DNA from: a virus
Taxonomy: Duplodnaviria; Heunggongvirae; Uroviricota; Caudoviricetes
IMG/VR virus record: IMGVR_UViG_2609459845_000005
Direction: 5' to 3' (one strand)
Length of the DNA stretch: 5,405 nt
Shown here: in pieces, positions 1 to 5,405 of the stretch
How the letters are laid out: every line of letters starts with the position of its first letter
Position numbering within the stretch: position 1 is the stretch's first letter
Translations under genes and position numbers: made by a program
The notes under the pieces: model-generated
What the model saw: only the letters and a program-made list of their open reading frames with translations
The model's database searches: none
Told to the model about the DNA's origin: nothing

Positions 1-477
1 CGTTGGCCTCAACACGATTTTACGTCACTTAAAAAACTCAGGCCGCAGTCGGTAACCTCGCGCATACAGCCGGGCAGTGACGTCATCGTCTGCGCGGAAA
101 TGGACGAACAGTGGGGCTATGTCGGGGCTAAATCGCGCCAGCGCTGGCTGTTTTACGCGTATGACAGGCTCCGGAAGACGGTTGTTGCGCACGTATTCGG
201 TGAACGCACTATGGCGACGCTGGGGCGTCTTATGAGCCTGCTGTCACCCTTTGACGTGGTGATATGGATGACGGATGGCTGGCCGCTGTATGAATCCCGC
301 CTGAAGGGAAAGCTGCACGTAATCAGCAAGCGATATACGCAGCGAATTGAGCGGCATAACCTGAATCTGAGGCAGCACCTGGCACGGCTGGGACGGAAGT
401 CGCTGTCGTTCTCAAAATCGGTGGAGCTGCATGACAAAGTCATCGGGCATTATCTGAACATAAAACACTATCAATAA
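1..477 (+). CDS. insB: IS1 InsB' transposase domain (5' partial; expressed as InsAB' fusion by -1 frameshift)
   Basis: Frame 1 is open from base 1 ([49 protein letters not shown]...HYLNIKHYQ*) and contains the track ORF 100..477. It matches IS1 InsB as recalled. Confidence 0.9.
2..55 (+). CDS. insA: IS1 InsA, 3' end only (5' partial)
   Basis: Frame 2 translates ...[17 protein letters not shown] with TAA at 53-55, which matches the InsA C-terminus from memory. Confidence 0.85.
31..37 (+). promoter_or_regulatory. IS1 programmed -1 ribosomal frameshift site (A6C slippery motif)
   Basis: AAAAAAC at 31-37 sits in the insA/insB' overlap within the context ttAAAAAACtc, the known IS1 frameshift window. 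Confidence 0.8.
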
Positions 478-557
478 GTTGGAGTCATTACCTCCAAATC
501 TGAATAATTAAGTTCAGCACTGTAAATAAAATTTAATCCTTAACTGGAGGTATATCT

Positions 558-1920: not shown

Positions 1921-1979
1921 TGCAGCGGGTGCTTGAGGCTATCTGTCTCAGGCATGAACACCAAAAGGCAGATAGAGAA

Positions 1980-2047
1980 AAGCCCCAGTTAACATTACGC
2001 GTCCGGCAAGACGCTTAACATTAATCTGAGGCCATATCTATGCTCTA
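1980..2047 (-). ncRNA. sok: candidate Sok-type antisense RNA (approximate ends)
   Basis: Minus-strand promoter-like elements: -35 TTGCCT (plus 2078-2083), 17-nt spacer, -10 TAACCT (plus 2055-2060). The transcript would be antisense to the mok start region and carries an imperfect hairpin (GUUAA/UUAAC outer stem, GCGUC/GACGC inner stem) before a short U-run. Placement follows the known hok/sok architecture. Confidence 0.4.
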
Positions 2048-2252
2048 CACACGTAGGTTAGCCTCTTACGTGCCGAAAGGCAAGGAGAAGCAGGCTATGA
2101 AGCAGCAAAAGGCGATGCTAATCGCCCTGATCGTCATCTGTTTAACCGTCATTGTGACGGCACTGGTAACGAGGAAAGACCTCTGCGAGGTACGAATCCG
2201 AACCGGCCAGACGGAGGTCGCTGTCTTCACAGCTTACGAACCTGAGGAGTAA
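2040..2252 (+). CDS. mok: Mok-like reading frame (70 aa), in frame with and containing hok
   Basis: ATG at 2040 extends the Hok frame by 19 codons (MLYTRRLASYVPKGKEKQA-), with a GGAGG-type RBS within it just before the hok ATG. This is the same arrangement I recall for chromosomal mokC/hokC. Confidence 0.55.
   Translation: MLYTRRLASYVPKGKEKQAMKQQKAMLIALIVICLTVIVTALVTRKDLCEVRIRTGQTEVAVFTAYEPEE
2097..2252 (+). CDS. hokD: Hok-family type I toxin, HokD-like (51 aa)
   Basis: MKQQKAMLIALIVICLTVIVTALVTRKDLCEVRIRTGQTEVAVFTAYEPEE matches E. coli HokD (RelF) as I recall it: one TM helix plus the conserved C-terminal Hok region. AGGAGAAG RBS precedes the ATG. Confidence 0.9.
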   Translation: MKQQKAMLIALIVICLTVIVTALVTRKDLCEVRIRTGQTEVAVFTAYEPEE

Positions 2253-4130: not shown

Positions 4131-4948
4131 AACTGGAAGATTTACCGAAATACTACTCCCCAAAATCCCCCGGCCTGACTGATGCATCGGCCTCAACGTC
4201 GAAAGATGCGCTGAGTATCACTGATGTGATGGCCGCGCAGGGCATGACACAGAATCGGGCTGGGATGGGGTTTTCTGCGTTCCTTGGGAAAATGGGCATT
4301 AGTATGAATGACAGAGAGCGGGCAACAGAATTGCTGACAGAATATGCACTCAGTCGGTGTGATCGCGTGGCGGCGTTAAGAAAACTCCCGGCAGAAATAA
4401 AACCGGCAGTGATGCGTATTATGGCTTCGTATGCGTTTGAAGATTATGCCCGTAGCGCAGCGAGCAAAAAACAGTGCCCCTGCTGTCACGGAAAAAAATT
4501 TATTGAAAGCGAGGTTTTTACAAACAAGATCCAGTATCCGGATGGTAAGCCGCCGGTATGGGCAAAGTGTACGAAAGGTGTGTATCCGTCTTACTGGGAA
4601 GAATGGAAAAAAGTCAGGGAGGTGGTAAAAGTTGCCTGTCCGGAGTGTGGCGGAAAGGGTGAGGTTTCCACCGCCTGTAAGGATTGCCGTGGGCGTGGTG
4701 TCGCCATTCATCGTGAAGAGTCGGTAAAACGTGGTATGCCTGTTATCAGAGACTGCCAGCGTTGTGGTGGTCGTGGCTGTGAAAGACTACCATCAACGGA
4801 GGCATTTAATGCCATATGCAAAGTGACGAGTGCTATCACGCTTGATACGTGGAAAAAATCAGTGAAACGCTTTTACGATACGTTGGTGGTTCGGTTTGAC
4901 ATTGAAGAGGCATGGGCGGAGCGGCAGTTAAAGAGGGTAACGCGATAG
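4127..4948 (+). CDS. putative late-gene antiterminator Q-like protein with four DnaJ-type zinc-finger repeats (273 aa)
   Basis: ATG overlaps the rusA stop (ATGA). It is the last gene before a promoter/terminator pair, as Q is in lambdoid phages. Contains CPCCHGKK, CPECGGKG, CKDCRGRG and CQRCGGRG (three perfect CxxCxGxG). Confidence 0.55.
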   Translation: MKLEDLPKYYSPKSPGLTDASASTSKDALSITDVMAAQGMTQNRAGMGFSAFLGKMGISMNDRERATELLTEYALSRCDRVAALRKLPAEIKPAVMRIMASYAFEDYARSAASKKQCPCCHGKKFIESEVFTNKIQYPDGKPPVWAKCTKGVYPSYWEEWKKVREVVKVACPECGGKGEVSTACKDCRGRGVAIHREESVKRGMPVIRDCQRCGGRGCERLPSTEAFNAICKVTSAITLDTWKKSVKRFYDTLVVRFDIEEAWAERQLKRVTR

Positions 4949-4953
4949 TGTTG

Positions 4954-4981
4954 TTGATTTTTCCCGAATCTGTGGTAAATT
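4954..4981 (+). promoter_or_regulatory. candidate late promoter (PR'-like) with embedded Q-utilisation region
   Basis: TTGATT at 4954-4959, 16-nt spacer, extended -10 TGgTAAATT at 4973-4981. It starts 6 nt after the Q-like stop. Confidence 0.4.
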
Positions 4982-5030
4982 CGCTCTAACGATGGGCGTT
5001 TTATGCCTGACGTTAGAAGATTTTTTACAC

Positions 5031-5053
5031 CCCGCCGCCTGGCGGGTTTTTTA
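5031..5053 (+). terminator. strong intrinsic terminator (tR'-like) about 60 nt downstream of the candidate late promoter
   Basis: cccgcc-gcct-ggcggg is a perfect 6-bp GC stem, followed by tttttta. Confidence 0.75.
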
Positions 5054-5174
5054 TGACTGAAATCGCGTCAGTACAGTAAACGCGCTGGTGGCGGTGAATA
5101 CCTGTCTTTCAGCTTGCTGGCTTTTTCGACAAGAGTTATTGGTGTGTCACGTTAACCGGAAAAGGGAAAAAGAC

Positions 5175-5372
5175 ATGCTAAAACAGCAGGATATGACAGA
5201 AACCGCCAGAGTAGTGTTTAATGAATTAAGCGTTACCGAACCGGCGACAGTCGGGGAGATTGCACAGAATACTTACCTTTCACGCGAACGCTGCCAGTTA
5301 ATACTGACCCAGCTGGTTATGGCGGGGCTGGCAGACTATCAGTTCGGTTGTTACAGACGCCTTCCGCAGTGA
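5175..5372 (+). CDS. hypothetical small protein (65 aa), possible helix-turn-helix DNA-binding protein
   Basis: ATG at 5175 with AAGGGA at 5162-5167. The track ORF start at 5088 is a GTG with no RBS. The segment VGEIAQNTYLSRERCQLILTQLVMAGL looks like an HTH recognition helix. Confidence 0.45.
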   Translation: MLKQQDMTETARVVFNELSVTEPATVGEIAQNTYLSRERCQLILTQLVMAGLADYQFGCYRRLPQ

Positions 5373-5383
5373 AGGCTTTTTTA
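5359..5383 (+). terminator. intrinsic terminator overlapping the stop codon of the 65-aa ORF
   Basis: gccttc-cgcagt-gaaggc stem-loop followed by tttttta. The stop TGA (5370-5372) lies in the loop/3' arm. Confidence 0.65.
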
Positions 5384-5405
5384 TTTGTGGTAAATGGGCG
5401 GCTGG

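Follow-up and report, generated by a model that had tools for sequence, protein, structure and literature searches.

The DNA analyzed here, 5,405 nucleotides (nt) from one strand of IMG/VR virus record IMGVR_UViG_2609459845_000005 (hereafter, the window), comes from a lambdoid Escherichia coli prophage and spans its right-hand early region and the junction of early with late genes. The part under study is the 457 bases that follow the Q antiterminator gene, at 4949-5405. These bases hold, in order, a late promoter of the lambda pR' type, an intrinsic terminator in the position of tR', a gene for a 65-amino-acid (65-aa) winged-helix protein, a hairpin that overlaps the end of that gene, and the opening nucleotides of a leader RNA that, in related phages, stands before a DNA methyltransferase gene (Table 1). 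A first-pass annotation, made from the letters alone, had seen here a cargo gene in the slot between Q and the lysis genes, bracketed by a terminator and by a repeated 10-mer, TGTGGTAAAT, and had suggested that the repeat marks either a duplicated late promoter or the insertion of a small module that copied the promoter. Our own reading, in which we have good confidence, is that at 4949-5405 a prophage late operon of the lambda type begins in the ordinary way, with the winged-helix gene first, that the repeat of the 10-mer is coincidental, and that its second copy edges an RNA switch ahead of a methyltransferase gene of the M.EcoGII type. A promoter, a terminator and a small open reading frame (ORF) make a common arrangement and are mostly an ordinary finding; what is new is a conserved, bistable leader before the methyltransferase, together with its tie to the small winged-helix gene.

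The assignment of the promoter begins with the gene upstream of it. The Q protein of the window aligns to lambda Q (PDB 7ubm; E value 2.9e-40) over residues 1-113 and 182-273, and is by this measure a lambda Q homologue; between the two blocks lies an insert relative to lambda Q of about 68 aa, at aa 114-181 (window 4466-4669), with extra CxxCxGxG (DnaJ-like) zinc-finger motifs. Directly downstream of Q, 4954-4998 reads as a lambda-type late promoter. When the lambda late region was compared directly, its layout was TTGACT, 17 nt, TAAATT, TGACTC and AACGATGGG, and that of the window TTGATT, 16 nt, TAAATT, CGCTCT and AACGATGGG, so that the two agree in the -10 hexamer TAAATT, in the length (6 nt) of the interval after it and in the 9-mer AACGATGGG (L084 790-798 in lambda). 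In lambda, AACGAT is a -10-like element at +1 to +6, where sigma-70 pauses and Q loads. A generic sigma-70 scan of 4700-5405 called zero sites and missed pR' as well, since TTGATT/TAAATT scores 8/12 against a threshold of 9, and the promoter was identified through the lambda comparison instead: the hexamer, the spacing and AACGATGGG are identical to those of lambda, a lambda Q homologue lies upstream, and a terminator lies downstream. The first-pass annotation was thus right to place a late promoter and terminator before the small gene, and right also that the first 10-mer contains an extended -10, with TG at -15/-14 before TAAATT. The predicted RNA of about 65 nt from pR' to tR' folds into a 5' hairpin and the terminator hairpin (-21.9 kcal/mol, z = -2.45). 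In size and context this RNA is near two published small RNAs of prophages, HnrS (66 nt; PMC13502914) and PasD (bioRxiv 10.64898/2026.05.13.724894). A complement to the hha ribosome-binding site was not found for it, and testing its pairing with the start region of hha gave no informative result.

The 65-aa ORF is, on comparative grounds, a real gene. Against phiP27 it shows 11 synonymous and 0 non-synonymous differences, and against SfV 16 synonymous and 3 non-synonymous differences plus an in-frame 3-nt deletion in SfV; the AlphaFold2 model is a winged helix of three helices and a beta-hairpin wing, with a pLDDT (predicted local distance difference test) averaging 93. It is because of the synonymous excess, the in-frame deletion and the confident model that we treat the ORF as real, and the helix-turn-helix-like character proposed for it earlier is borne out. 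Lack of conservation had been named as an outcome that would undo the earlier reading of the region, and the ORF is conserved, with a ratio of non-synonymous to synonymous rates (dN/dS) of 0.00-0.06 out to Salmonella and Citrobacter. The exact protein occurs on at least 1000 contigs, while the family as a whole is small, with 61 clusters at 50% identity that consist entirely of short proteins of enterobacterial type. PHROG 331, to which it belongs, is annotated as of unknown function; the Pfam TrmB match is below the curated cutoff (18.0 bits vs 25.6, E 0.0026), no NCBIfam model matches the protein, and PADLOC returned nothing for the ORF. No clear palindromic operator was found for the protein, and it has no CxxC zinc motif. 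Some databases list N-terminally extended forms of 94-106 aa; between genera, however, the sequence ahead of the ORF shows no in-frame conservation, and the 65-aa form was therefore taken as real. Conservation within the protein is highest at its N-terminal MLKQQDMTE (residues 1-9, 5175-5201), a stretch to which the model gives no structure (pLDDT about 76) and which might serve as a contact motif or owe its conservation to a constraint on the mRNA.

In the E. coli lineage the hairpin in which this gene ends makes an intrinsic terminator of moderate strength. The first-pass annotation had given the gene a strong terminator of its own: the terminator stands, as the stem at 5359-5376 plus T6, and its strength does not, the stem being worth a moderate -8.9 kcal/mol. 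The stop-codon hairpin is kept through covarying changes across genera (L086-L115), but the U-tract is strong only in E. coli phages and weak in the other genera; in Providencia the hairpin is absent.

What lies beyond the hairpin changes the standing of the gene. A DNA methyltransferase gene of about 1050 bp comes after the ORF in SfV, phiP27 and E. coli 14EC047; in phiP27 and 14EC047 it is succeeded by tRNA genes, beyond which lie stx (Shiga toxin) or lysis genes. The phiP27 order is ORF, methyltransferase, tRNAs, stx2e and lysis genes, in agreement with the earlier statement that the slot holds stx in related phages. That the first late gene is a small helix-turn-helix-like one and not a lysis gene likewise agrees with what we find, as the winged-helix gene is first in the late operon. 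The description of it as cargo does not survive, for the ORF is not free-standing. In a scan that took one genome per species and gave 31 loci, from Escherichia to Providencia, Erwinia, Mixta and Plesiomonas, the methyltransferase gene lies about 150 nt past the ORF stop in 30. A pattern search of viral contigs with the spacer only gave 121 instances of the leader, and both ORF and methyltransferase were present in 104 of the 110 with enough flank. The antiterminator genes ahead of this arrangement are of at least three types: PF03589, PF06323 and that of phiP27. On this evidence the ORF is best described as one part of a conserved unit that consists of winged-helix ORF, leader RNA and methyltransferase gene, and its strong association with the methyltransferase suggests that the protein serves the phage internally rather than regulating host genes. 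Named examples of the gene pair are SfV orf47-orf48, phiP27 L23-L24 and AGR48370/AGR48369 of phage 1720a-02, with 92-100% protein identity for the ORF; in all three phages ORF, leader and methyltransferase come directly after Q and tR', and in phiP27 and 1720a-02 the unit is upstream of the stx genes. Unlike the window, these phages have different Q and pR' types, and their annotation runs only to hypothetical protein, TrmB family or DNA methyltransferase, with the leader unannotated.

The leader RNA is about 130 nt long and occupies the space between the winged-helix ORF and the methyltransferase gene (L002 4343-4495, L003 3882-4033 and 25 other loci). It was studied in an alignment of 27 species-level loci (A2), with the relatives L001, L002 and L003 read individually. 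It is conserved from Escherichia to Plesiomonas with a mean column identity of 78%, though the synonymous sites of the ORF are saturated between genera. Two folds emerge. Fold A comprises helix P1a (AUGGGC:GCUCAU), hairpin P1b, the long-range helix P2 and two inner helices; 94.5% of alignment cells are paired, compared with 29-43% when partners are slid by 1-3 columns, and 11 pairs are compensatory. In P2, AGGUCA.AAGC pairs with GCUU..UGAUCU, the 12 nt (-1 to -12) immediately before the methyltransferase AUG, with 94.4% of cells paired and 4 compensatory pairs. Fold B joins UUCGCU..UG to CA..AGCGAA (UUCGCUCAUG with CACAAGCGAA) in place of P1a and P2; 93.2% of cells are paired, 10 pairs are compensatory, and one pair appears as CG, UG, AU and UA. 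In Providencia and Plesiomonas CACAAGC becomes CACGGAC or CACGGGC and the change is compensated in both alternative partner strands, as a true switch predicts. Many G-U pairs indicate that the structure is one of the + strand RNA. Under constrained folding the two folds are near iso-energetic, with a mean difference of -0.2 +/- 4.8 kcal/mol. The leader can thus be described, from covariation, as a structured RNA with two mutually exclusive folds, one of which hides the start region of the methyltransferase. It is apparently an undescribed RNA switch: Rfam 15, searched with L002, L003, L088, L107 and L115 at E up to 1, gave no match to the leader, only tRNAs being above the curated thresholds and the other sub-threshold matches in these five relatives lying outside the leader. 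No Shine-Dalgarno sequence precedes the methyltransferase AUG in the relatives or the alignment. A conserved leader peptide was considered and rejected, as the mini-ORF that opens at the invariant AUG runs for 3 to 45 or more codons, has no Shine-Dalgarno sequence and encodes an unconserved peptide; its tandem Trp codons (MGGWWVL) vanish where the helix covaries. An invariant GATC stands just before the methyltransferase AUG, within CUGAUC(U/C)AUG, in all 27 leaders (L002 4484-4492, for example), and is at least partly explained by the P2 pairing.

The third member of the unit is a PF01555 protein of 349-352 aa with an N-terminal DPPY and a C-terminal FxGxG, and PADLOC matches it to type II methyltransferase models. 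In L001 it is 95% identical to the enzyme of phage 1720a-02, which is that phage's only candidate and comes directly after the ORF. The 1720a-02 enzyme has been called very similar to M.EcoGII, a 349-aa beta-class prophage enzyme that methylates adenine in any sequence context, is unexpressed in the lysogen and is harmful when made constitutively; M.EcoGII and M.EcoGI are both encoded on prophages of E. coli O104:H4 and methylate adenine non-specifically (PMC5778455). By way of phage 1720a-02, the case that the methyltransferase of the unit is a beta-class N6-adenine enzyme of the M.EcoGII/M.EcoGI type is strong but indirect; the likeness extends to the length, the architecture (DPPY, target-recognition domain, FxGxG) and a prophage origin, and the window's own copy of the gene would lie beyond 5405. 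In the literature searched on Stx phages, methylomes and M.EcoGII, no description of the ORF or the leader was found, and no mechanism was given for the silence of M.EcoGII in lysogens.

The repeat itself was correctly reported: the + strand has two exact copies of TGTGGTAAAT, one at 4971-4980 and the other at 5386-5395. Such a repeat is no more than chance expectation. In first-order Markov simulations at least one exact 10-mer pair was present in 13% of simulated 457-nt regions, and the window in total contains 37 exact direct 10-mer pairs, compared with 18 +/- 6 in the simulations; a 10-mer that overlaps the promoter and recurs downstream, a narrower and post-hoc question, was seen in 0.7%. 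Statistics alone leave the repeat open, and the comparative data must decide. Among viral contigs, 80 encode the ORF, nearly all with an identical protein, and 80 loci with enough flank were counted. Their second site is TGTGGTAAAT in 30, TGTGGTAAT in 49 and another sequence in 1. Sixteen of the 30 have neither a lambda-like pR' nor the first copy, and carry a different promoter type upstream; across ORF-encoding contigs the sequences upstream of tR' are many and unrelated. The second site is TGTGAAAAT in SfV, TGTGGTAAT in phiP27, and CTGTGAAAAT, CTGTGGAAAT or CTGTGAAAT in other genera. Because the other genera and SfV spell GAAAAT or GGAAAT here, the GGTAAAT spelling is derived within a subset of E. 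coli phages. What the second 10-mer covers is the single-stranded flank and the first two bases of P1a. We conclude that it is in all likelihood the E. coli-lineage spelling of the helix P1 flank, and that its match with the promoter 10-mer is coincidental.

The alternatives that give the second site a promoter history can be weighed on the same data. A duplicated late promoter, or the scar of an inserted module that copied the promoter, would give the downstream genes a start of their own. The identity of the two 10-mers speaks for this, as do the low figure for promoter-overlapping repeats, the TGn motif before TAAATG with a T-rich stretch ahead of the site, and the SfV variant, which would make a fair extended -10. 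As a promoter, however, the second site is poor: its hexamer TAAATG has G at -7, neither the AACGAT pause element nor a -35 is present (by sequence and by the sigma-70 scan), and the commoner allele TGTGGTAAT lacks either A at -11 or T at -7. Nor is the site conserved, being the 10-mer in only 30 of the 80 loci, occurring with unrelated promoters upstream, and having in GGTAAAT a derived spelling. As for an inserted module, homology to other phages usually begins at 5031, the tR' stem, which is the left homology edge with most Stx phages (that with SfV begins at 4985), and continues without a break at 5386 as far as the query reaches; the 10-mers therefore do not bracket a mobile unit. We consider duplication or insertion very improbable, and neither form of the original suggestion is retained. 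It could be argued instead that the second site is an ancient relic of pR' that has lost 13-14 nt of the initial transcribed region, so that the two sites share ancestry and promoter function has since disappeared. The first site reads TGTGGTAAAT, TCGCTCTAACGAT, GGGCG and the second TGTGGTAAAT, GGGCG, a match of 15/15 across one 13-nt gap, and this does tell against coincidence; we treat it as chance. The likeness fades in the consensus of the other genera, CTGTGAAAATGGGCGG, the GGTAAAT spelling is therefore derived and not ancestral, and ATGGGCGG is under the constraint of helix P1, which together leave shared ancestry with only the slightest likelihood.

From these elements a course of events can be proposed. 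RNA polymerase would start at pR' near 4988, directed by TTGATT and by TG with TAAATT, and would pause at the -10-like AACGAT, where the lambda-type Q would load. Without Q, transcription would stop at tR' (5031-5052) and leave the RNA of about 65 nt; with Q, in lytic growth, polymerase would read through tR' and the weaker ORF terminator. Any transcription that starts between tR' and the ORF should end at the ORF terminator, at least in E. coli. Transcripts that do reach the methyltransferase gene would adopt fold A, with the start region hidden, and tR', the ORF terminator and fold A may jointly prevent a toxic, non-specific methyltransferase from being made in lysogens. If fold B took over late in lytic growth, the start would be freed and the enzyme translated, and its methylation of progeny DNA would guard against restriction. 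For the winged-helix protein the most likely role is one within the unit, as a regulator of its expression. Whether it also triggers the switch is doubtful; ribosomes, whether positioned on the invariant AUG or coming down from the ORF, are an equally doubtful trigger, a small ligand is improbable, and the remainder of our expectation goes to something else. In its fullest form, which we regard as rather unlikely, the proposal is that winged-helix protein and bistable leader make up a protein-operated RNA switch of Com/Mom-like logic that would let a toxic, sequence-independent adenine methyltransferase be translated only late in lytic growth. A variant is that the protein reads or shields the N6-methyladenine (6mA) DNA made by the neighbouring enzyme, winged-helix domains being known as 6mA sensors (PMC11037411).

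Two further explanations assign the parts of the unit differently. In one, the winged-helix ORF is an independent moron with a promoter (5113-5146), gene and terminator of its own, expressed from the prophage and acting on host or phage promoters, and its adjacency to the methyltransferase is historical. The block upstream of the ORF is indeed laid out like a promoter (TTGCTG-17-TAnnnG), with its -35-like TTGCTG and variable spacer in all genera, and no consensus RNA structure was found in it (-0.17 kcal/mol); the gene has a terminator after it in E. coli, is absent from lambda itself, and stands apart from the methyltransferase at a few loci. Yet the -10-like hexamer of the block lacks T at -7 in every lineage, the generic scan called no sigma-70 site there, and the U-tract of the terminator is weak or absent outside E. 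coli. ORF, leader and methyltransferase also stay together, at fixed spacing, in all but one of the species-level loci despite saturated synonymous sites, and we think an independent moron unlikely. The other explanation has ribosomes, and not the winged-helix protein, flip the leader, in the manner of ermC or trp: a ribosome that finishes the ORF, or that starts at the AUG at 5394-5396, melts P1a, and pairing of segments 2:3 frees the start. The four-segment layout in which both alternative pairings covary speaks for this. So does the AUG, which is invariant in 27/27 species-level sequences while its pairing partners vary, lies at a constant 18-24 nt from the ORF stop (10 nt in Providencia) and is preceded by A-rich, unstructured sequence. 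Pairing explains part of that invariance, however; there is no Shine-Dalgarno sequence, anti-Shine-Dalgarno pairing amounts to only about -2 to -3 kcal/mol in most sequences, and the mini-ORF varies in length (3 to about 45 codons or more), with a peptide that shifts as the helix covaries. We think a ribosomal trigger unlikely as well, and prefer the description of a late operon that opens with a winged-helix gene and continues into a switch-like leader and a methyltransferase gene.

Several observations weigh against that preferred description and should be set beside it. Only the first 12-20 nt of the leader are inside the window, and the remaining 120 nt or so, together with the methyltransferase, were read in relatives. 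What follows the second 10-mer, which the first-pass annotation had proposed to establish by extending the sequence, is accordingly settled in part: in relatives it is the leader RNA and the methyltransferase gene, and in L001 an IS66-family insertion intervenes. This element, ISEc23, lies in the leader after GAATGAGC in the closest complete genomes (L001 6597 onward) and separates the ORF from the methyltransferase. The linkage also has exceptions among the 110 leader instances. Four (L129, L161, L183 and L198) have the ORF and a truncated leader, reduced to the first hairpin, with a different gene downstream and no methyltransferase, and one (L199, reverse strand, near 10568) has leader and methyltransferase directly after a promoter region with no ORF; the winged-helix protein is thus not strictly required for the enzyme. 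The fold matches of the protein are generic and its net charge is about -1. Kinship with M.EcoGII was taken from the published statement (PMC5778455) and from annotation, not from a direct alignment to EGT69837.1. Finally, we infer the transcript ends (start and termination sites), the on/off meaning of the two folds, the trigger of the switch and the role of the protein.

Comparison with known systems shows how far each part has precedent. The lambda late region (Q, pR'/qut, 6S RNA and tR') is alike in its homologous Q, in TAAATT, the 6-nt spacing and AACGATGGG, and in a short leader RNA that ends at a terminator. It differs in that the Q of the window has the 68-aa zinc-finger insert, that the -35/-10 spacer, where lambda Q binds, is not the same and the window has the extended -10 TG, and that the terminated RNA is 194 nt in lambda and about 65 nt here. 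Lambda orf-64 lies in the same region and was considered as a homologue of the 65-aa ORF; it shows no similarity and is unrelated. StxS is likewise a short RNA from a constitutive late promoter that ends at tR' in lysogens, and it shows that terminated late RNAs of this kind act as small RNAs; it comes, however, with a 144-aa Q type and as a 258-nt precursor that is cut to 74 nt (PMC7547250). The com-mom operon of Mu offers a parallel in logic: there, too, a gene for DNA modification, with a translation start concealed by RNA structure, has a small ORF immediately upstream, and the enzyme is harmful and made late. Mu Com, however, is a zinc-finger RNA-binding protein, where the protein of the window is a winged helix without a zinc site, and com-mom has a single inhibitory stem, where the leader here has alternative pairing of four segments. 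The leader shares with those of ermC and trp type a layout in which segments 2 and 3 can pair only if 1:2 and 3:4 do not, with the start region of a methyltransferase gene under segment 4; unlike them, the present leader is without a conserved peptide, a Shine-Dalgarno sequence or a known stalling signal.

The region is very common. It was matched in 2489 of 5426 complete E. coli genomes, 1076 of which have a single place that covers at least 80% of 4900-5405, and the closest relative, L001, is 99.6% identical over 4900-5405. M.EcoGII is widely used as a reagent, and two terminators and a fold that hides the start would together be a concrete, testable explanation for the silence of the methyltransferase. 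Moreover, in phiP27-like and 1720a-02-like phages the unit lies between the late promoter and stx2, and may affect the transcription that reaches the toxin genes. Should the protein prove to operate the switch, or to read or shield 6mA, thousands of E. coli prophages would have in this unit a new point of control; in many Stx2 phages it lies between the late promoter and stx.

Table 1. Features of the window and of the adjoining methyltransferase gene. Positions are those of the window except where a relative is named.
Feature	Position	Strand	Remarks
Insertion sequence IS1, end	1-492		InsB C-terminal part 100-477; terminal inverted repeat ends at 492; own reading of the sequence (439-492)
hok/sok toxin-antitoxin locus	1927-2252		Rfam sok, 117 bits; Pfam HOK_GEF
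Q antiterminator gene, 273 aa	4127-4948	+	Pfam PF03589, E 2.8e-49
-35-like hexamer TTGATT of the predicted pR'	4954-4959	+	Separated by 16 nt from the -10 hexamer; set by eye against lambda TTGACT-17-TAAATT
First TGTGGTAAAT and following T	4971-4981	+	Extended -10 TG at 4973-4974 (-15/-14); -10 hexamer TAAATT at 4976-4981
AACGATGGG	4988-4996	+	Predicted start, about 4988, and -10-like pause element, by analogy with lambda
Predicted pR'-tR' RNA, about 65 nt	4988-5053	+	Inferred ends; expected in a lysogen without Q
tR' intrinsic terminator, CCCGCCGCCTGGCGGG plus T6	5031-5052	+	Stem 5031-5046, -12.6 kcal/mol
Conserved block: CTTGCTG, about 11 variable nt, AGAGTTAT, TG.TG	5113-5146	+	In all 28 aligned loci, many genera
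Gene for 65-aa stand-alone winged-helix protein	5175-5372	+	PHROG 331; equivalent to SfV orf47 and phiP27 L23
Hairpin with the ORF stop codon in its loop, then U-tract	5359-5385	+	Stem 5359-5376 plus T6, -8.9 kcal/mol
Second TGTGGTAAAT	5386-5395	+	Lineage-specific form of the flank just 5' of leader helix P1, consensus CUGUGRAAAU
Leader RNA, first 12 nt	5394-5405	+	AUGGGC (5394-5399), 5' strand of P1a; GGCUGG (5400-5405) opens hairpin P1b
Methyltransferase gene (outside the window)	L001 9163-10212; L237 2993-4051		

Taken as a whole, and by Pfam, Rfam and the list of ORFs, the window holds in order up to 4948 the end of IS1, several small ORFs, hok/sok, a DUF968 gene, a RusA gene and Q. The Rfam scan of the window, at E up to 1, gave sok, sub-threshold matches and nothing more; one of the latter is to IsrK, a Salmonella prophage small RNA, at 2261-2342 after hok/sok (27 bits against a cutoff of 50). 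The IS1 end at the start of the window implies that the prophage is truncated or interrupted on that side.

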